From an uncultured Lachnospiraceae bacterium (GTDB taxonomy: Bacteria > Bacillota > Clostridia > Oscillospirales > CAG-272): a DNA stretch of 64,000 bases. The notes under the pieces were generated by a model. The model was given only the letters and a program-made list of their open reading frames with translations. It made no database searches and had not been told where the DNA came from. The stretch lies in assembly GCA_964461635.1 (NCBI GenBank), contig CAYWVC010000001.1, positions 627 to 64,626 on the forward strand, read 5' to 3'. Shown here piece after piece: positions 7,237-55,484 of this stretch (position 1 is the stretch's first letter; the number at the start of each line of letters is the position of its first letter). Made by a program: the position numbers and the translations under genes.

Positions 7237-9747
7237 TTGAAACAGTTTAACGTGACCGGGATGAGCTGTGCCGCTTGCAGTGCAAGAGTAGAGAAGGCGG
7301 TGTCAAATGTTAAGGGCGTTACGTCGTGTTCGGTGAGCCTTTTGACCAATTCGATGGGGGTCGAGGGCACTGCCGAGGACAGCGCGATCATCGCGGCAGT
7401 GGAAAAAGCGGGCTATGGTGCGACGCTTAAGGGGGGCGCGGCTTCGCCCGAAAGGTCTGCGGACGATCCCTTGCGTGACCGTGAGACGCCGAGGCTCGTT
7501 CGGCGACTTAGTGCGTCGGCGGTATTTCTGCTGTTGTTAATGTATATATCTATGGGTCATATGATGTGGGGCTGGTGGCTCCCGTCGTGGCTTGCCGATA
7601 ATCATATTGCTATGGGACTTGCTCAAATGATCCTGTCTGCTACCGTTATGGTAATTAACCAAAAGTTCTTCATCAGCGGCTTTAAGGCATTGATCAAGCG
7701 TTCCCCGAATATGGACACCTTGGTCGCTCTCGGCTCCGCCGCGTCGTTCGGATGGAGCGTCGTAGTGCTTTTCCTTATGACCGACGCTCAGATGCGCGGC
7801 GATACCAACGCCGTTATGCAATATATGGATAGCTTTTATTTTGAGTCGGCGGCAATGATTCTTACCCTTATTACAGTCGGCAAGCTGCTTGAGGCGCGAT
7901 CGAAGGGCAAGACCACCGACGCGCTCAGGAGCCTTATGAAGCTTGCACCGCAGAGCGCGACCGTAGTGACCGATGAAGGGGAGACCGTGGTGCCGATCGA
8001 ACGCGTTAAGATAGGGGACGTTTTTGCGGTTCGCCCCGGGGAGAATATTCCGGTCGACGGCATAGTGATCGACGGTAGCAGTGCGGTAAACGAAGCGGCG
8101 TTGACGGGTGAAAGCATACCGGTGGATAAGCACGTCGGCGATCGGGTATCGGCGGCTACGGTCAATCAATCCGGATATATAAAGTGTGAGGCAACCAGAG
8201 TCGGCGAAGATACCACCTTGTCGCAGATAATCAAGATGGTGAGTGATGCCGCCGCAACGAAGGCTCCGATAGCCAAGGTTGCCGATCGTGTTTCGGGAGT
8301 TTTCGTTCCGATAGTTATGGGCATTTCTCTCGTTGCGCTTGCGGTTTGGCTTATTATAACCGGGGATTTCGGATATTCGTTGGCAAGGGGCATATCGGTG
8401 CTCGTGATAAGCTGTCCTTGCGCGCTTGGACTTGCCACACCGGTAGCTATAATGGTCGGAAACGGAGTTGGGGCACGAAACGGAATTCTGTTCAAAAATG
8501 CGTCTGCTCTTGAGGCGGCGGGAAAAACAAGGATAATTGCGCTTGATAAGACGGGTACTATCACAAACGGCGAGCCTCTCGTGACCGATCTGCTTCCCGC
8601 GGACGGTGTGTCGGAACGCGAGCTCCTTGAGCTTGCCGCGGCTGTCGAGGCAAAGAGTGAGCATCCCTTGGCGAAGGCGATATTGAAAAAGGGCGAGGAG
8701 CTTGGGCTTTCCGTGCCCGACGTATATGACTTTAAGGCTCTTACGGGAAGCGGAGTTTCCGGTAATGTCGGAGATAGTCTTATCTTGGGCGGAAGCTTGA
8801 AATTCATATCGGAAGGTGTTGCGATAGACGACGGCGTGACACGTATGGCGGGAAGCTTGGCTGAGGACGGCAAGACCCCGCTTCTGTTTACGCGCAACGG
8901 AAAGCTGCTTGGAATGATCGCGGTTGCGGATACGGTCAAGGCAGACAGCCCCGCCGCGATACGTGCCCTGAGAGATATGGGAATCAGCGTGGTAATGCTT
9001 ACGGGCGATAATGAACGCACGGCAAAGGCAATAGGAACCTTGGCGGGTGTTGACGAGGTGATAGCCGACGTTTTGCCCGACGGCAAGGAGGCTGTCATTA
9101 GGGAGCTTAAAAAGCAGGGCAGGGTAGCTATGGTCGGCGACGGCATAAACGATGCGCCCGCGCTTGTACGTGCCGACGTCGGTATAGCCATCGGTGCCGG
9201 TGCCGACGTCGCGATAGATGCCGCCGATATCGTCCTTATGAAAAGCTCGCTTGCCGACGTTCCCGCGGCGATAAGCCTGAGCCGCGCTACGCTGAGGAAT
9301 ATTCACGAAAATCTCTTCTGGGCGTTCATATATAACGGAATCGGAATACCCTTGGCGGCGGGATGCTTCGTGGCGTTCGGACTTACCTTAAACCCTATGT
9401 TCGGTGCGGCGGCTATGAGCCTTTCGAGCTTTTGCGTGGTCACGAATGCTTTGCGCCTGAACTTCTGCAATATCTACCGCGCACCAAGGCATCGGACTCA
9501 TAGCCGTCAGACGGACGTTCACGCAACATTGACCCAAAACGTCTTGCGCGAGCAGACGGTACGTATCGACGGAATGATGTGCGGCCATTGTGAAGCACGC
9601 GTAAAGGAAGCGCTTGAAGCATTGCCTTTTGTCACAAGTGCGAAGGCCGATCACACCAAAGGGGAGGCTCTGCTGAAGCTTAACGGCGAACCCTCCGATA
9701 AAGAGATCAAAAAAGCAGTGAAAAAAGCAGGTTATAAGGTGATATGA
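7237..9747 (+). CDS. copA: Copper-translocating P1B-type ATPase with N- and C-terminal HMA domains
   Basis: 836 aa. TTG start 9 nt after GGAG. N-terminal GMSCAAC, TM CPC motif ([11 protein letters not shown]), [16 protein letters not shown]-terminal second HMA (GMMCGHC). Confidence 0.9.
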
Positions 9748-10739
9748 GCTATTCGGAGCCTAATCCCCAATGGCGCATAAGTTATAAGACCGACAAGGAA
9801 ATGTCAAAGCAATGGCATATGAGCCGACGTCGGGTGATTGAGTTTTGCCTTGACGAAAAGATCAATGATATTATCTCGGTGGATTGGTGGGCATATCGCA
9901 TAGCGGATGATTTGCCCAAGCCAATACCGCAGAGAACTTACCTGCGGCAGATAGATGCCAAACAGCGTGAGTTTGCCTCGATCGATCCGCCCGATAAATT
10001 CGTCGTTCAGTGGATGGAGAACGAGCTCATTGCCGGCTTCATCTACCATACCAACCGTATATGCGGCAGCTTGCTTACCTTTGACGACACGGTCAACGTT
10101 TTGAACGGGGCGGAGGTCAATGCCAGATTTCCCGAAGACGTTGACGCAGTTATAAGACAAAGGGACGCTTTGCTTTATCTTCGGTCTGCCGCTCGGAACG
10201 GCGAAACGCTTTCGCACGAGCTTATCAAACACGTTCATTATTTGCTGATGAACGGCAAATGCGAATCCGCAGGTGATTATCGCACAAGGCGAGTGGGTCT
10301 TGAGACCGGGGATCTTACGATCCAACCGTATAAGGAAATTACGAAAAAGATCCGGAAGCTGATCTCCGAAAATGCCCGTTCCTGCAAAAAGAATATGCCT
10401 GCCGCCATGCGGATGGCGAGACTCTATCTGACGTTTTTGGATATGAGACCGTTTTACGACGGTAATCGCAGGGTTGCACGGTTACTTGTTAACTTTGAGC
10501 TTATGCGCGCGGGCTTCCCGATTATAATCGTGCGGTTTTGTGACAGTGCCCGCGTTTTCCGCGCCACTGAAACGTTCATCGAGCAAGGTAGCTTTGAGCA
10601 TATGGCGGAGCTTATGGCGATGGCGATTGACCGAAGTCTGGATATCTACCTTCCGGTATACAAGAAGGTAGACGAGAACCGTAGGGCACCGCGCCGTCAA
10701 TTATACAAACGGACGAAAAGAAAGATACAAAGCAGATGA
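9744..10739 (+). CDS. Fic-fold protein with a degenerate active-site motif and an N-terminal HTH-like segment
   Basis: 331 aa. ATGA overlap with the copA stop. Fic core is recognisable (AGDYRTRRV; [14 protein letters not shown] in place of HPFxDGNGRxxR). N-terminus [21 protein letters not shown]...DLPKP resembles HTH_17-type modules. Confidence 0.7.
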
Positions 10740-11761: not shown

Positions 11762-11797
11762 ATCGGTCGGGCATCGCTTATGCGATGCCCGACCGAT
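11762..11797. terminator. Hairpin terminator between convergent genes
   Basis: 16-bp perfect stem atcggtcgggcatcgc / gcgatgcccgaccgat, loop ttat, then cTTTT on the + strand. Confidence 0.75.
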
Positions 11798-12462: not shown

Positions 12463-13572
12463 TCAGTCCTCGAAGGGGAAGTGATACTGATCGAGGTGAA
12501 GCTCGTTGCGAACCGCGATGAGCTCCTTCTGAACTGCGTCGTTGATCGGAACGCCGTTCTTTCTGGCAAGGCGTACGTCGAATTCCTTCTCGCCCGCGGT
12601 GTAGATGCGGTCTGCACCGGGAGCCTTCTCGGATGCACGAAGAGCGCGGCAGATATCGCCGGCGGTCTTTCTGAAGGTGCACTCGCCCATAAAGTGATCG
12701 GTGTCGATGGCAAAGAAGAAGTGTCCGAGGTGGAACTGCTTCTTGGAGCCGTCCTCGGCGATACCCGAAAGCTGCTTCATGAAGGGACCGCCGGTGAGAG
12801 CGGCAGAGAGGATCTCAACGGTCGCTGCGTAGCCGTAGCCCTTGTAGCCCGCAAGCTCCTCGCCTGCGCCGCCGAGCGGGCAGAGAGCTGCTTCGCCGGT
12901 GTTGAGCTCCTTAAGGATAGCGTCGGAATCGGTGTGATACTTGCCGTCACGGCCGATGACCTGACCCTCGGGAGTGTTCTTGCCGATTCTGGAGTAATAT
13001 TCGATCTTACCGCGCTGAACGATCGAGGTAGCGCAGTCAAGGATGAAATCAAAGGGCTCGTCGGTGGGGAGTCCGAAGGTAAGGGGGTTGGTGCCCATCA
13101 TATTCTCTACGCCGAAGGTAGGAGCAATGGAAGGACGGGCGTTGGTTCCGGTGATACCGATGCAGCCGCACTTGGTTGCCATGGTAGCATAGTAGCCGGC
13201 GATGCCGTAATGGCAGGAGTTCTGAACGGCAACGCCGCCCATACCGTACTTCTTGGCCTTTTCGATAGCCATGCTCATGGCCTTGTGACCAACGACCTGA
13301 CCCATACCGTCGCCGCCGTCGAGAACTGCGGTGCACTCGGTTTCCTTAAGTACCGTGATGTTGGTAACGGGGTTCTGGATACCCGCCTTGATTCTGTCAA
13401 GGTAGATGGGCTTGAAGCGGTTTACACCGTGGGATTCAATGCCGCGCTTGTCGGACTCAAGGAGCACGTCCGCGCAGATGATAGCATCCTGACGGGGAAT
13501 GCCGTAGCCGACGAAAGAGTCGACAACAAAATTAGTTATTGTTGTCCAATCGACAATGTTGTTCTTTGCCAT
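12463..13572 (-). CDS. Malate/L-lactate dehydrogenase type 2 (Ldh_2) family oxidoreductase
   Basis: 369 aa. LLESDKRGIESHGVNRF and NSCHYGIAGYYA motifs typical of the Ldh_2 family. SD ggagga upstream. Confidence 0.8.
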   Translation of the reverse strand: MAKNNIVDWTTITNFVVDSFVGYGIPRQDAIICADVLLESDKRGIESHGVNRFKPIYLDRIKAGIQNPVTNITVLKETECTAVLDGGDGMGQVVGHKAMSMAIEKAKKYGMGGVAVQNSCHYGIAGYYATMATKCGCIGITGTNARPSIAPTFGVENMMGTNPLTFGLPTDEPFDFILDCATSIVQRGKIEYYSRIGKNTPEGQVIGRDGKYHTDSDAILKELNTGEAALCPLGGAGEELAGYKGYGYAATVEILSAALTGGPFMKQLSGIAEDGSKKQFHLGHFFFAIDTDHFMGECTFRKTAGDICRALRASEKAPGADRIYTAGEKEFDVRLARKNGVPINDAVQKELIAVRNELHLDQYHFPFED

Positions 13573-13585
13573 ATTTTTTCCTCCG

Positions 13586-13602
13586 TGAAAGCTTAGCTTT
13601 CA
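13586..13602. promoter_or_regulatory. Palindrome TGAAAGC-tta-GCTTTCA in the 5' UTR of the Ldh_2 gene (candidate operator)
   Basis: Perfect 7-bp arms between the predicted -10 box and the SD. The arms equal the half-sites of the cre consensus TGAAAGCGCTTTCA but carry a 3-nt insert. Confidence 0.35.
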
Positions 13603-13620
13603 ATAAATTTTGGTATGTTA

Positions 13621-13649
13621 ATTATATCACAATCCTTTTTACTTTGCAA
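13621..13649 (-). promoter_or_regulatory. Sigma-A-type promoter of the Ldh_2 gene
   Basis: On the minus strand: TTGCAA (13649-13644), 17-nt spacer, TGaTATAAT (13626-13621). Confidence 0.55.
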
Positions 13650-13843
13650 TACATTTTTCGATACTCGGGCATTTTTAGTAGGTAGTTATAATATAGTTGA
13701 GTTTACATCGCTTTTTATAGGTCATTTTTTACTGCCGGGCGAAACAGTACCTCGCTTGGCGAATAACTTGTCGAAAAAGATAAAATTTCCGTTTTATATG
13801 GTTATCAACAAAAAATGAATTGAAAAATCGGTAAAAATGATAG

Positions 13844-13872
13844 TTTACAAATGCGGGAGGATGTGGTATAAT
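13844..13872 (+). promoter_or_regulatory. Strong sigma-A-type promoter driving the candidate RNA upstream of lon
   Basis: TTTACA (13844-13849), 17-nt spacer, TGgTATAAT (13867-13872). Confidence 0.6.
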
Positions 13873-13878
13873 CTTCTC

Positions 13879-14003
13879 ACCGGATCGCGCCATGGGCCAA
13901 TAGGCACGTTTCGGTTATAAATCACAGCGGACACGGGTTTGCGGCGGAATATCAATCTTATGATATCACCTCGCCACGGGCAGTCACCGCTGTGCGTTTT
14001 TTT
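13879..14003 (+). ncRNA. Candidate ~125-nt structured RNA (orphan sRNA or lon leader/attenuator); family not recognised
   Basis: Bounded by the promoter above and by a helix cacagcgg (13923-13930)/ccgctgtg (13987-13994) followed by cg and T7. An internal hairpin at 13879-13915 and the hairpin atatca-atctta-tgatat (13949-13966) are predicted by eye. No SD-led ORF. Confidence 0.4.
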
Positions 14004-14108
14004 ATTGTAAAAAATCATTCGTAACGGTAGAAAAAAAGTCGGAAGTGTGATATAATATAAAATCAGATAATTATAATCGCTTTTTGTTGCACGTTGAAAG
14101 GAAAGATA

Positions 14109-16535
14109 ATGCCCGCATACATAGAAAAAGCCGAAATGATGACGTTGCCCGTGGTAATACTTCACGATGCCGTCGCATTTCCTTCCATAACGTTAAATTT
14201 TGAACTTTCGGATGCCGCAAGCCTTGCAGCCGTTGCCTCGGCAAATGCCGGGAGCGGTTGTGTCTTATTGATCACCGCAAAGCCGGGCGAGGATGACGGT
14301 AACGGTGCCGATAAGCTCCCCGCAGTCGGAACTGCGGCTCGCATAAGACAAACCATAACCGAGAACGGCGGAGAGCTGCGAGTGATCGTCGAGGGCTTTG
14401 CCAGAGCCACGTTGCAAAGAACGGAACGCACGGGTAACTACCTTACCGCCGAGGTCATATGTAAGGCGCATTCCTTACCCGACAACGGAGGGGTCCGCGG
14501 CGAGGCGCTGGTGCGTGAGGCAAGGATCGCCTTCGAACAGATAATGACGTATTTTCCGTCCGCCCCGACAAACGTGGTGGCGGCGGCATCGCATATTGAC
14601 GATCCCGGGGTGCTGGCGGATTTTATCGCGTCGAACGCCTTGGTGAGGACAGAGGATAAGCAATTGGTGCTTGAGGCATTCGAGCCCTTGCGCCGTATCG
14701 AGCTCCTCATATATCTGTTGGCGAACGAGACCGAGCTGCTCAAGTGCGAATTTTCAATTCATAAAAAGGTTCACGACAGGATAAACGAGAGTCAGAAGGA
14801 ACGGTATCTGCATGAACAGCTCAACGCCATTCGCGAGGAGCTTGGCGAGAACGACGACGATGACGATTATTTTAAAAAGATAAAGGCTGCGCATCTGCCG
14901 GATGAGATCAGTGAAAAGCTTTTCCGCGAGGCAGTGCGTATGGAAAAGTCGCAGTTCGGCTCGGCTGAGGCAAGCGTGATACGGAACTATCTTGACATTT
15001 GTCTTGAGCTCCCGTGGACTCGCAGAACGAAGGACCGTACCGACGTTGCGGCGGCAAAGAAGATACTTGATGCCGATCACGACGGCTTGGATAAGGTAAA
15101 AGAGCGCGTGCTTGAATATCTGGCGGTCCGCACCCTTAATCCGGAGCTGAAAAATCAGATAATCTGCCTTGTCGGACCTCCCGGAACGGGAAAGACCTCC
15201 ATCGCGCGTTCAATGGCAAGGGCAATGCACCGCAAATACGTCCGTGTGTCGCTTGGCGGTGTGCGTGACGAGGCGGATATCAGAGGACATCGAAAAACTT
15301 ACGTTGGAGCGATGCCGGGGCGGATCATCAACGCCCTGTCGCAGGTAAAGGTCAATAATCCGCTTATGCTGCTTGACGAGATCGACAAGGTCGGCTCGGA
15401 CGGCAGGGGCGATCCCGCGGCGGCACTCCTTGAGCTGCTTGATCCCGAGCAAAACAAGTATTTCAGGGATCATTTTATAGAGCTGCCATTCGACCTTTCG
15501 GACTGCCTGTTCGTTTGTACCGCTAATTCGCTGGAGACGGTGCCGCGACCGCTGATCGACAGAATGGAGATAATCGAGCTTAAGAGCTATACGGACACGG
15601 AAAAGCTCGGAATTGCGCGACGTCACCTTCTGCCGAAGCAGATCAGGCGGCACGGTATGAACCTTCGTATGATGCGGGTCACCGACGCGGCGTTGACCGA
15701 GGTGATAAACGGTTATACGGCAGAGGCGGGGGTCAGAGGTCTTGAGCGTGAGCTTGCGACCCTTTGCCGCAAGGCGGCTATGCGGATAGTCGAGGAGGGA
15801 CTGACACGGGTGACCGTGGATCGGCAGGACGTTTCCGGCTATCTCGGCGTAAGAAAGATCATACCGGAGCGTATCTCATCTACCGACGAGGTTGGCGTTG
15901 TCAACGGGCTCGCTTATACCGAGGTCGGCGGGGATATGCTGAAGGTCGAGGTTGCGGTGCTTGACGGTACCGGTAAGCTTGAGCTTACGGGATCGCTCGG
16001 CGACGTTATGAAGGAATCGGCTCAGGCGGCGGTAAGCTATATCCGTTCGATCGCCGTTTCACTCGGCATAAAGACCGATTTTTATAAAACGAAGGATCTT
16101 CATATACACGTTCCGGAGGGGGCGGTGCCGAAGGACGGACCGTCCGCGGGCGTAACCATTATGACCGCGCTTGTCAGTGCGCTGACGGGGCGCCCCGTGC
16201 GGCGGGACGTGGCTATGACGGGTGAGATAACTCTTCGCGGCAACGTTCTGGCGATAGGCGGGTTGCGCGAAAAGACTATGGCGGCGTATAAGGCGGGTGT
16301 TAAAAAGGTAATAATTCCTTCGGATAATACACCCAACCTTGAGGATATAGACGCCGAGGTCGCGAGCAAGCTGACCTTTATCCCGGCGCGTCACGCCTCG
16401 GAGGTTCTTAACAATGCCTTGGTCCCCGAGCTTAAGGCGAGCGACGTGACGCGGACGTTTCCATCTGAAATTAAGGGAGCACCGATCACCGACAGCTCGG
16501 TGACCGTTGACAAACTTGGAAGAACGGAGATCTGA
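14109..16535 (+). CDS. lon: ATP-dependent Lon protease
   Basis: About 808 aa from ATG 14109 (SD gaaagg upstream; the track starts at TTG 14094). Walker A GPPGTGKTS, catalytic PKDGPSAG, and the LON substrate-binding N-domain. Confidence 0.92.
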   Translation: MPAYIEKAEMMTLPVVILHDAVAFPSITLNFELSDAASLAAVASANAGSGCVLLITAKPGEDDGNGADKLPAVGTAARIRQTITENGGELRVIVEGFARATLQRTERTGNYLTAEVICKAHSLPDNGGVRGEALVREARIAFEQIMTYFPSAPTNVVAAASHIDDPGVLADFIASNALVRTEDKQLVLEAFEPLRRIELLIYLLANETELLKCEFSIHKKVHDRINESQKERYLHEQLNAIREELGENDDDDDYFKKIKAAHLPDEISEKLFREAVRMEKSQFGSAEASVIRNYLDICLELPWTRRTKDRTDVAAAKKILDADHDGLDKVKERVLEYLAVRTLNPELKNQIICLVGPPGTGKTSIARSMARAMHRKYVRVSLGGVRDEADIRGHRKTYVGAMPGRIINALSQVKVNNPLMLLDEIDKVGSDGRGDPAAALLELLDPEQNKYFRDHFIELPFDLSDCLFVCTANSLETVPRPLIDRMEIIELKSYTDTEKLGIARRHLLPKQIRRHGMNLRMMRVTDAALTEVINGYTAEAGVRGLERELATLCRKAAMRIVEEGLTRVTVDRQDVSGYLGVRKIIPERISSTDEVGVVNGLAYTEVGGDMLKVEVAVLDGTGKLELTGSLGDVMKESAQAAVSYIRSIAVSLGIKTDFYKTKDLHIHVPEGAVPKDGPSAGVTIMTALVSALTGRPVRRDVAMTGEITLRGNVLAIGGLREKTMAAYKAGVKKVIIPSDNTPNLEDIDAEVASKLTFIPARHASEVLNNALVPELKASDVTRTFPSEIKGAPITDSSVTVDKLGRTEI

Positions 16536-20000: not shown

Positions 20001-20649
20001 TATAGAACGCGTGTCGGATGTCCGATCGGAGGCAACGTCCGATGAGGCTTTGAATACTGTTGCCGATATACGTCGGGCGATAGAAGCGATACTTTTCGCC
20101 GCGGGCTATCCTATGAGCTATGATAAGCTGGGCGAGGTGCTGGGACTTGCACCTAATGACGTCAAACTTATGGTAGAGGATATGCAAAGAGATTTCAACG
20201 GGGACGACTCGCCGCGCGGGATACAACTGTTGACCTTTCCCGATACCTGTCAGCTTTGTACGAAGGAACGTTTTATGCCGTATATCCGTGAAGCACTCGG
20301 AATCAAGCGTGGCGGAAATTTGTCGGCATCATCTCTTGAGGTGATGGCGGTCGTGGCTTACAATCAGCCGGTAACGCGCGCTTTTATTGATCAAGTTCGC
20401 GGCGTGGACAGCAGCTACGCCGTTAATTCGCTTATTGATAAGGGACTTATTGAATCGTGCGGCAGGCTTGACGCACCGGGTCGCCCGATGCTTTTTGCCA
20501 CAACCGACAAATTCCTGCGTGTGTTCGGCTTTAATTCGCTTGACGATCTCCCCGTGACCGAGCCGCTCGTCGATCCCGCGGCGAACAAGGCTCCCGAGGC
20601 GGACGTGAATAGTGCCGAAGTTCCCGCTTTGGCGGCAGACTCGGAATAA
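19990..20649 (+). CDS. scpB: Segregation and condensation protein B
   Basis: From ATG 19990 (MTDDIERV...). AIEAILFAAGYPMSY, VVAYNQPVTRAFIDQVRGVDS, GRPMLFATTDKFL motifs. Confidence 0.88.
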   Translation: MTDDIERVSDVRSEATSDEALNTVADIRRAIEAILFAAGYPMSYDKLGEVLGLAPNDVKLMVEDMQRDFNGDDSPRGIQLLTFPDTCQLCTKERFMPYIREALGIKRGGNLSASSLEVMAVVAYNQPVTRAFIDQVRGVDSSYAVNSLIDKGLIESCGRLDAPGRPMLFATTDKFLRVFGFNSLDDLPVTEPLVDPAANKAPEADVNSAEVPALAADSE

Positions 20650-50983: not shown

Positions 50984-51750
50984 CTTTGTTTTTCCTCCGT
51001 TGAAAATAGAATGTGATCCGAATAACAGATCTCTGTAACAGTTAAGTAATGTAATGTGAAGATCATAAAAAGCACCCCGACCGTGCAGAGCGAAAGCAGT
51101 ACCCACGGCAAAGAACCGAGGATCAGCAAAAGCATCTGCGGGAAATTCTTAAATGCAAGCCTTACAGACAGCGCAAAGCATCTGAAGGGGTTTTTATCGT
51201 GAGATAAGACGAATACGCTTGCCAGCGGAAGCACCGTTACAAGCAATATTATGCAGAGTATCGCGGCGGCAACCGCAATCGCCATCACCAACAATACGCC
51301 TGTGATGCCGTCCCCAAGCCGAGAGATCACCTCCGCAGCTATTGCCGCAGGCACGAGCGGCAAAGCCGAAAGAAGCGCGACGCAACAGCTTTTCATAAAA
51401 AGCCCGAACGAAGAATAATACCGAAAAAGCTCCGCCAAGCCGATACATTCGCCTCCCGCCGCCTTTGCCGCCATACGGTGATAACCCGTAAACAGCGGTG
51501 CCGTGAAGATGACCGATAGCAATATAAACGCCGGATCGCAAAGTCGGCGGACAGTTTCCTCTGCCGACGGATCGGAGATCAGAATTACCGTGTCCGCGAC
51601 CGCTGCGACGATGATATACGTTGCTATTACCGCAAGGGCGTATATCATAACGGCGAAGATCAACGTCAGCCTTGCGTTGCCGTCGGAGAGTGCTTCCTTT
51701 GCAGCGACTCTTGCAAGCTTTATCGGTGATGACGGCTTCTTTTCTTTCAA
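50980..51750 (-). CDS. Polytopic membrane protein, function unknown
   Basis: 256 aa. TTG start with SD gggggtgag. 5-6 TM helices. Overlaps the nagA stop and the metG start. Confidence 0.6.
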   Translation of the reverse strand: MKEKKPSSPIKLARVAAKEALSDGNARLTLIFAVMIYALAVIATYIIVAAVADTVILISDPSAEETVRRLCDPAFILLSVIFTAPLFTGYHRMAAKAAGGECIGLAELFRYYSSFGLFMKSCCVALLSALPLVPAAIAAEVISRLGDGITGVLLVMAIAVAAAILCIILLVTVLPLASVFVLSHDKNPFRCFALSVRLAFKNFPQMLLLILGSLPWVLLSLCTVGVLFMIFTLHYLTVTEICYSDHILFSTEEKQR

Positions 51751-52877
51751 ATCCGCTCACCCCCGATAAAAATATCCTCAATGAATATTTTTCCGTTTTC
51801 AAGCCGAACGAGCAGAGCATCGGCGCATTTGCCGACGGCAAGAGATCCAACGGTGCCGTCCGCTCCGATCTCACGTGCCGGGTTCAGGGTAGCGCATCTC
51901 ACGGCGTTCGCCAGCCCGATGTTGCAAAAGCTCATAAGATTTTCTACCGCAGTCTTAAGGTCAAGCGTGCTCCCGGCGAGCTTGCCGTCTGCTGTCAACG
52001 CCCGTCCGTTAACTACCCGACAGGGCGATCCGGCTATATCGTAATCACCGTCGGGACAGCCGGTAGCTTCCATTGAATCGGTTATCAGCACGAGATGCTC
52101 TTCGGTAAGACAACCGTACGCAAGCCGGACCATCTCGGGCGAAACGTGAAGCCCGTCGCATATCAGCTCGCAAAAGGCTCCCGAGGTAAGCCCCGCAACC
52201 GCCGCGCCCCCCGCGCGATGATGTATCGGCGGCATAGCGTTGAACAGGTGTGTAAAGCTTATGCCGTACTTTTCAAAGAGCGCGTGAGCCGTGTTGAAAT
52301 CGGCACCGGTGTGACCGAGCCCAAGCGTCGCGCCGAGTGAAAGCGCTCTGTCGGCAAACCGTCCGTCGCCGTCAAGCTCAAGTGCCGCGGTTATATGGCA
52401 GGGAAGACACATTCGAAAAACAAGCGCATCAAGCTCTTCGGGCTTGAGAGGGGCAAGGAGCTCTGCGTTATGAGCTCCGCGGAAATCGGGATTAAGATAT
52501 CTCCCCTCAAGATGTATGCCGAGGAAGCGAGCTCCGCCGGTACTGCTTTTTACGGAATTGATCCTGTCGGCGGCGGAAATCAGTTCACCGTAAGCGGCAG
52601 ACGCTAAGGTGGGCATTACCGAGGTGACCCCGGTCTCAAGATAGCTCCTTGCCATAGCTCTGAGCTTGTCCGTGTCGGCAGATACGAAATCGCCCCCCGC
52701 TCGGCCGTGCGTATGAACGTCCACAAATCCGGGAAGCAGATACGCACCGCGAGCGTCTATCACGTCATCCGAATCGGCATTCTCGATTTCACAGACCGAT
52801 CCGTGCGAAAAGCCGATACTGCCGCGCCGAAGTGTTACGGCATCGGTATCGCAAATAACAGCGTTATTTATGATCAT
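51747..52877 (-). CDS. nagA: N-acetylglucosamine-6-phosphate deacetylase
   Basis: 376 aa. GFVDVHTHGRAGGDF, IHLEGRYLN, HLFNAM, and the GAxxGLGHTGA region. Confidence 0.9.
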   Translation of the reverse strand: MIINNAVICDTDAVTLRRGSIGFSHGSVCEIENADSDDVIDARGAYLLPGFVDVHTHGRAGGDFVSADTDKLRAMARSYLETGVTSVMPTLASAAYGELISAADRINSVKSSTGGARFLGIHLEGRYLNPDFRGAHNAELLAPLKPEELDALVFRMCLPCHITAALELDGDGRFADRALSLGATLGLGHTGADFNTAHALFEKYGISFTHLFNAMPPIHHRAGGAAVAGLTSGAFCELICDGLHVSPEMVRLAYGCLTEEHLVLITDSMEATGCPDGDYDIAGSPCRVVNGRALTADGKLAGSTLDLKTAVENLMSFCNIGLANAVRCATLNPAREIGADGTVGSLAVGKCADALLVRLENGKIFIEDIFIGGERI

Positions 52878-55409: not shown

Positions 55410-55443
55410 AACTTGCTACTTAAAAATTATTACGAACGCCAAA

Positions 55444-55484
55444 AAGGCATAACGGACGGACCGAGGTCATATCCGTTATGCCTT
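55444..55484. terminator. Bidirectional terminator
   Basis: aaggcataacgga / tccgttatgcctt 13-bp stem, with an A5 run on the upstream flank (read as T5 by the minus strand) and attcggttt on the plus-strand downstream flank. Confidence 0.75.

Follow-up and report, generated by a model that had tools for sequence, protein, structure and literature searches.

A predicted small RNA gene, usually located beside lon and equipped with a promoter and a terminator, in uncultured gut, rumen and digester Clostridia

Judging from the sequence, positions 13844-14003 of the window (the whole stretch of 64,000 nt of DNA analyzed here) encode a small non-coding RNA and form a stand-alone gene, complete with promoter and terminator. 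The predicted transcript is ~125 nt long in the window genome and about 75-190 nt long in relatives. It defines a new orphan sRNA family, restricted to uncultured gut, rumen and digester Clostridia, and all carriers of the sRNA are uncultured MAGs. Four observations carry this reading: a promoter that matches the consensus, an intrinsic terminator (P1, with 8 bp of which 6 are G-C, followed by CG and U7), a secondary structure backed by compensatory changes (89-92% of the alignment cells are paired), and the absence of conserved coding potential.

The reality of the sRNA is strongly supported, and no new principle is indicated so far. The Oscillospirales-type MAGs, a large group of gut and rumen Clostridia in which RNA regulation is almost unstudied and a cultured model is absent, thereby gain a well-supported sRNA family that had not been annotated before. 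The gain is incremental rather than conceptual, as orphan sRNA motifs abound and a standard mechanism is proposed below. A very clear putative working part, a tip of 14 nt that stays invariant while its stem covaries freely, and a persistent link with lon nonetheless give an experimental handle.

Structure of the predicted transcript

The 127-nt segment 13879-14005 folds at -45.8 kcal/mol, compared with an average of -34.1 +/- 3.8 for shuffled sequences (z = -3.1), and 1 of 200 shuffles folded as well as the native sequence. The architecture consists of a variable 5' hairpin (P0), followed by one long imperfect hairpin at 13923-13994 that is built of P1, P2 and P3 (Table 1). The initial annotation had proposed the 5' hairpin, the closing helix and the inner hairpin (13949-13966), and all three were recovered in the minimum-energy fold. 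The run of seven U that it described after the closing helix and a CG can be read directly from the sequence. It had also drawn attention to two copies of CACGGG, said to be unpaired. Both copies are present (13932-13937 and 13975-13980). In the minimum-energy fold, however, GUUUG (13937-13941) pairs with the second; neither copy is conserved outside the two nearest relatives, and the motif is no feature of the family. What matters instead is the invariant apical hairpin, which had been treated merely as enclosed.

Table 1. Features of the predicted sRNA gene and its surroundings (positions in the window).
Feature	Position	Strand	Basis or remark
Conserved segment 5' of the promoter, with phased A-tracts and AAAATCGG motif ~14 nt before the -35	13790-13843	+	
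Predicted sigma-70-type promoter TTTACA-17-TGgTATAAT	13844-13872	+	11/12 match, TG extension
5' hairpin P0, loop AUGGGCCAAUA	13879-13915	+	in minimum-energy fold
P1 5' strand CACAGCGG, conserved ACAG core	13923-13930	+	pairs with 13987-13994
P2 5' strand GUUUG-C-GGCG	13937-13946	+	pairs with 13972-13981
GA junction, family consensus GRAA	13946-13949	+	
Apical element (GA junction, P3, hexaloop)	13947-13966	+	fold and alignments
P3 AUAUCA/UGAUAU	13949-13954 with 13961-13966	+	
Hexaloop AUCUUA	13955-13960	+	
P2 3' strand CGCC-A-CGGGC	13972-13981	+	fold and alignments
P1 3' strand CCGCUGUG, then CG and U7 run (13997-14003): intrinsic terminator	13987-14003	+	sequence
lon promoter-like site TAGAAA-17-TGaTATAAT, between the RNA and lon	14028-14056	+	10/12, TG extension
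lon, 808 aa, usual neighbour of the sRNA gene	14109-16535	+	Pfam Lon_C, LON_substr_bdg, AAA domains

All copies fold individually into P1-P2-P3, and the family shares a common plan: P1, a variable internal region, P2, an asymmetric internal loop (5' GRAA), and P3 with the hexaloop AUCUYA. The core of P1 across the family is ACAG/YUGU. Every family copy ends in a terminator, with the U-run following P1 in most of them; the L010 group has, instead of a U-run after P1, an additional hairpin plus a separate GGAAUCGG/CCGAUUCC terminator (loci are cited by L numbers).

The tip has the family consensus AA-UCA-AUCUYA-UGA. The top three pairs of P3 (UCA/UGA) are near-invariant, and hexaloop positions 1, 4 and 6 never vary in A4, an alignment described below, while positions 2, 3 and 5 differ in a few copies. 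A YUNR motif is kept in the hexaloop as CUYA (CUUA or CUCA). The lower pairs of P3 covary in L015, L022, L032 and L064, and four lineages show the compensatory variants ACGUCA/UGACGU, ACAUCA/UGAUGU, GCGUCA/UGGCGU and AUUUCA/UGAAAU, a pattern that points to an RNA hairpin rather than to a DNA operator. The long covarying stem thus looks like a scaffold displaying an almost invariant tip.

P0 lies outside the universal core. Its stem varies and yet is maintained in L001 and L002, and the hairpin is lineage-specific, being missing in L016, L041, L045 and L120. Its loop AUGGGCCAAUA (13891-13901 in the window) recurs in L121 (~11765-11775) on an unrelated 8-bp stem, and the 5' hairpin of L099 carries the reverse complement of this loop, CCUAUUGGCC. 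In some lineages, the P0 loop may act as a further functional loop.

Family members, covariation and promoter

Eighty lon loci, one genome per species, were fetched. By BLAST, nhmmer and pattern search, the inner hairpin was conserved beside lon in many of these 80 loci, with divergent stem flanks. A first covariance model gave 23 copies among the window and the 80 lon loci; it had been built from an N-padded alignment and aligned P2 poorly, and was therefore replaced by a second model, R2. With R2, 40 distinct copies were obtained at E<0.01 from genome and metagenome contigs, and members outside its training set were recovered as well (L120 with 65 bits, L010 with 47, L093 with 43). Neither a relaxed pattern nor R2 gave further divergent copies in the other 58 lon loci. 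An exact scan of metagenome contigs for the 19-nt tip yielded 60 loci, 17 of which are copies according to the model (16 full-length and L101 partial). The remaining matches (about 43), which agree only in the 19-mer, were dismissed as chance, and four exact 19-mer matches on viral contigs were treated in the same way (best full-length score 22.7 bits, in L144).

The window copy scores 74.6 bits with a covariance model built from the relatives, and the window holds a single copy of the RNA. The runner-up in the 64 kb (55441-55484, 23.4 bits) is an ordinary terminator hairpin. Between the window and its closest relatives, L001 and L002, whose Lon proteins are 78-80% identical to that of the window, the core 13923-13994 is 99-100% identical. 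In the same comparison, identity falls to 67-68% for the first 300 nt of lon, to 54-60% for the lon 5' UTR and to about 60% on the far side of the gap, and we counted this difference as evidence of selection on the core.

The initial annotation had made its proposal depend on conservation and covariation in relatives; both were found, with 40 copies and with changes on both sides at 11-14 of 19 pairs in two alignments, A4 and A5. In A4 (MAFFT, not structure-fitted, 25 sequences), 88.7% of the cells were paired, versus 21-50% when the partners were slid, and 11 of the 19 pairs changed on both sides. In A5 (model-based, 40 distinct sequences), 92.4% of the cells were paired, versus 21-57% with slid partners, and changes on both sides affected 14 of the 19 pairs and 95 cells. 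None of 500 shuffles reached the observed score in either alignment. Considering the helices separately, P1 showed changes on both sides in 5 of 6 modelled pairs, with 93.7% of cells paired over the 40 sequences, and all five modelled pairs of P2 covaried. An N-padded hand alignment gave 95% of paired cells, but because every sequence had been aligned according to its individual fold, this alignment is biased and counts for less. Unaided, RNAalifold recovered only P3 on the MAFFT alignments because arm lengths differ among copies, so the P1-P2-P3 structure was named by us; the support for P1 and P2 comes from this author-named structure, then tested on A4 and A5.

A scan of the 64-kb window with Rfam 15 (4227 models) gave no match at the gathering score; the initial annotation, too, had been unable to match the RNA to T-box, SRP, 6S, c-di-GMP, ykkC/guanidine, ZTP, cobalamin or other riboswitch consensus sequences. 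At E<=10 over 13500-14200, the RNA body (13879-14003) was also without any match; a noise-level match to RT-17 (14.9 bits, E 6.8) overlaps only the first 7 nt of the promoter. L018 carries a longer version of the RNA, with which only noise was obtained. An sRNA upstream of lon in Clostridia was not found in the literature searched, nor does the motif occur among the first 200 supplementary files that accompany Fremin and Bhatt 2021 (PMC8040213).

The promoter had been ranked among the best of the window. Its coordinates, like all the others given for the segment, were confirmed, and it is the best sigma-70-type site in the 7 kb scanned around it (positions 12-19 kb of the window). TTTACA-17-TATAAT occurs at the expected place before 38 of the 40 family copies. 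TTTACA by itself was rejected as a special -35, since it is an ordinary -35 hexamer that is common throughout this window. The 54 nt located 5' of the -35 are 94-98% identical to L001 and L002, where the lon CDS is 67-68% identical; this region is probably a UP-like or activator site. Most family members have an AAAATCGK motif at this same position, ~13-15 nt 5' of the -35, and together with the phased A-tracts this motif fits a strong, possibly activated, sRNA promoter. Transcription would start near 13879, from this strong sigma-70-type promoter with its A-tract-rich upstream region.

In L010 (1110-1127), cGTCAAAaatcGTCAAc is found just 5' of the sRNA -35, and it stands at the same place in L015, L018, L022, L023, L024 and L028. 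It is close to the tandem heptad RGTCAAA-NAN-RGTCAAA, which we take to be the consensus of the CtsR operator. This sequence is confined to the L010 group: the window has TTGAAAAatcGGTAAAA, a poor match to the presumed consensus, and a regex search with that consensus gave no CtsR-like box in the 64 kb. A CtsR operator was rejected as a family-wide feature, being clade-specific.

Proposed function and the relation to lon

We favour an independent sRNA that acts in trans by docking its apical loop on URAGAU in one or more target RNAs, a reading to which we give a probability of roughly 0.55. The tip would be the working part, and the RNA would act away from its own locus. The apical hexaloop with its YUNR (U-turn) motif would dock on the partner by loop-first pairing of the kissing type, most likely with one or more mRNAs that contain the complementary sequence URAGAU.

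Candidate targets were sought at lon and in the window. On average, the tip pairs with the 5' region of lon no better in the loci that carry the RNA (-6.37 kcal/mol, 32 loci) than in those without it (-6.32 kcal/mol, 52 loci), and lon was rejected as a target. When the start regions of the window were scanned, the best match reached -13.3 kcal/mol, a value equalled or beaten by 20% of shuffled queries. That match lies in 9684-9773 and concerns a 331-aa ORF (9744-10739), with AUAAGGUGAUAU over the SD and start codon. The exact complement of the tip occurs in the window as one 10-mer, at 51932, which is about the chance expectation. Two points speak against pairing: the loop comprises only 6 nt and is rich in A and U, and the invariant stem pairs below it fit protein recognition at least equally well.

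It is possible, if rather less probable, that the RNA binds a protein, as a decoy, a sponge or a component of an RNP, with the tip read by a sequence-specific RNA-binding protein and the stem serving as scaffold. Invariant pairs under an invariant loop, with covarying pairs further down, are the pattern of protein-recognised hairpins; the negative search for RNA targets in the lon 5' region and the start regions of the window points the same way, and the strong promoter with its A-tract upstream region suggests an abundant RNA. Set against this, no gene for an RNA-binding protein is consistently adjacent (the neighbours are lon, infC or unrelated genes, with infC beside the sRNA in L007, L022 and L106), each RNA has a single binding hairpin, unlike typical sponges, and neither a K-turn nor a GGA-type motif is conserved, the GGA located 5' of P3 being replaced by GAA or AAA in many copies.

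The initial annotation had hesitated between an independent sRNA and an attenuator of the lon-engB-lysA block. Its first proposal is borne out by the promoter found before 38 of 40 copies, the terminator, the covariation and the lack of a conserved ORF. The second, a cis-acting leader in which transcription would reach lon only when something, such as a factor bound to the tip, overrides the P1 terminator, now appears unlikely. It draws on the position of the RNA, which lies 100-300 nt upstream of lon and on the same strand in the window, in most loci selected for lon and in 9 of 13 informative metagenome contigs. Also, in L007 the next gene, which is lipoprotein-like, starts 28 nt past the U-run (L007:2440-2500, minus strand); this spacing leaves no room for a promoter of its own, so terminator read-through may drive that gene. 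The position and orientation upstream of lon, however, are not fixed as an attenuator requires. The sRNA is on the strand opposite lon in L005, L007, L020 and L106, and these inversions arose at least twice, since L096 and L013, which are close relatives, keep the usual orientation. In L010, a convergent 463-aa gene intervenes between the sRNA and lon, and lon was not seen in the fetched DNA of the metagenome contigs L088, L120 and L103. A leader would furthermore have no promoter between its terminator and the gene, and here the site at 14028-14056 intervenes. Described earlier as weak, this site in fact matches 10/12 positions and has a TG extension; it is 76-83% identical in L001 and L002, and in the L015 group an extended -10 also sits between the sRNA terminator and lon. 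Finally, no alternative antiterminator helix was seen by eye in the alignments, and the riboswitch and leader families gave no match.

The link between the sRNA and lon is thus strong synteny and not cis-regulation, and the sRNA is its own transcription unit. Lon is adjacent in 10 of the 13 metagenome contigs with enough flanking DNA, and as the metagenome search relied solely on the RNA motif, this sample is not biased toward lon. Between the sRNA terminator and the lon promoter, a motif ATTGTAAA(w)AA is present (14005-14015 in the window, ATTGTAAAAAA) and recurs at the same place in L001, L002, L015-L028, L016 and L121; it may be an operator for lon. The gap that holds the RNA, previously called the largest in the window, is the third largest on a crude ORF map, in which two other gaps of 0.6 kb (51107-51746 and 20001-20611) are without any ORF of at least 90 aa.

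A functional coupling of the RNA to Lon, in which Lon, a Lon adaptor or a Lon substrate would bind the tip of an abundant RNA, or in which the RNA would regulate proteostasis genes in trans, seems improbable to us at present. It would explain why the gene stays beside lon despite the flips in orientation and, if true, would represent an RNA layer of Lon control that is not known to have been described in Firmicutes.

Very improbable is a DNA element in which the palindrome TATCA-N6-TGATA would be the operator of a dimeric lon regulator and the remainder an ordinary terminator. The conserved core is indeed an inverted repeat beside a stress gene. Its central 6 nt, however, are conserved and yet asymmetric, changes at the outer positions of the half-sites are all compensatory, the spacing from the promoter varies between about 30 and about 100 nt, and the element always lies at the tip of a covarying stem, in fixed orientation between promoter and terminator. 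A small-peptide gene, opened by the AUG in the P3 3' strand (16 aa in the window, MISPRHGQSPLCVFLL), has next to no chance of being the explanation and was rejected: AUGAUAU is conserved with a GGA 11 nt upstream, but the ORFs range from 2 to 81 aa across copies and share no conserved peptide beyond M-I, the AUG is buried in P3, and substitutions track base pairing instead of codons.

Comparison with known RNAs

The trans-acting sRNA that we favour can be compared with several known systems. Like the attenuator leaders of Firmicutes (T-box, the L20 leader of infC, protein-dependent terminators), it has a promoter-proximal structure and an intrinsic terminator before a gene. Unlike them, its orientation relative to lon and infC flips, a second predicted promoter follows the terminator, the T-box and L20-leader models gave no match, and an antiterminator was not seen by eye.

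Gut-1 RNA (RF01706) and Clostridiales-1 (RF01699) are likewise short stand-alone structured RNAs of uncultured gut Clostridia that were defined comparatively. The present RNA differs from both in giving no covariance-model match and in its architecture, one long hairpin whose AUCUYA tip is invariant. Gut-1 RNA is absent from the window. It was detected downstream of lon-engB in four loci (L015:6091-6174, L022:5098-5181, L023:6098-6178 and L028:6090-6173), with 51-56 bits for a gathering score of 50, and the same loci carry the new RNA upstream of lon.

The new RNA is like RoxS/RsaE in its independent sigma-A promoter and intrinsic terminator, in its size of ~100 nt, in having a conserved loop as putative working part, and in its conservation across a family-level clade. 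RoxS/RsaE, however, use C-rich loops against the Shine-Dalgarno sequence, whereas the loop described here is A/U-rich and not anti-SD, and the RNA is without an Rfam match.

The loop itself is best compared with those of the antisense RNAs CopA, RNA I and Sok, in which YUNR U-turn loops reportedly allow fast pairing. As in these RNAs, a long stable stem presents a YUNR loop of 6-7 nt, here with CUUA or CUCA. CopA, RNA I and Sok are plasmid-encoded opposite their targets; the present gene is chromosomal, and the best promoter-like site on its opposite strand is weak (GTGACT-16-TATCAT, 9/12). By analogy with these antisense RNAs, the YUNR loop would suit a fast, loop-first recognition of a complementary RNA.
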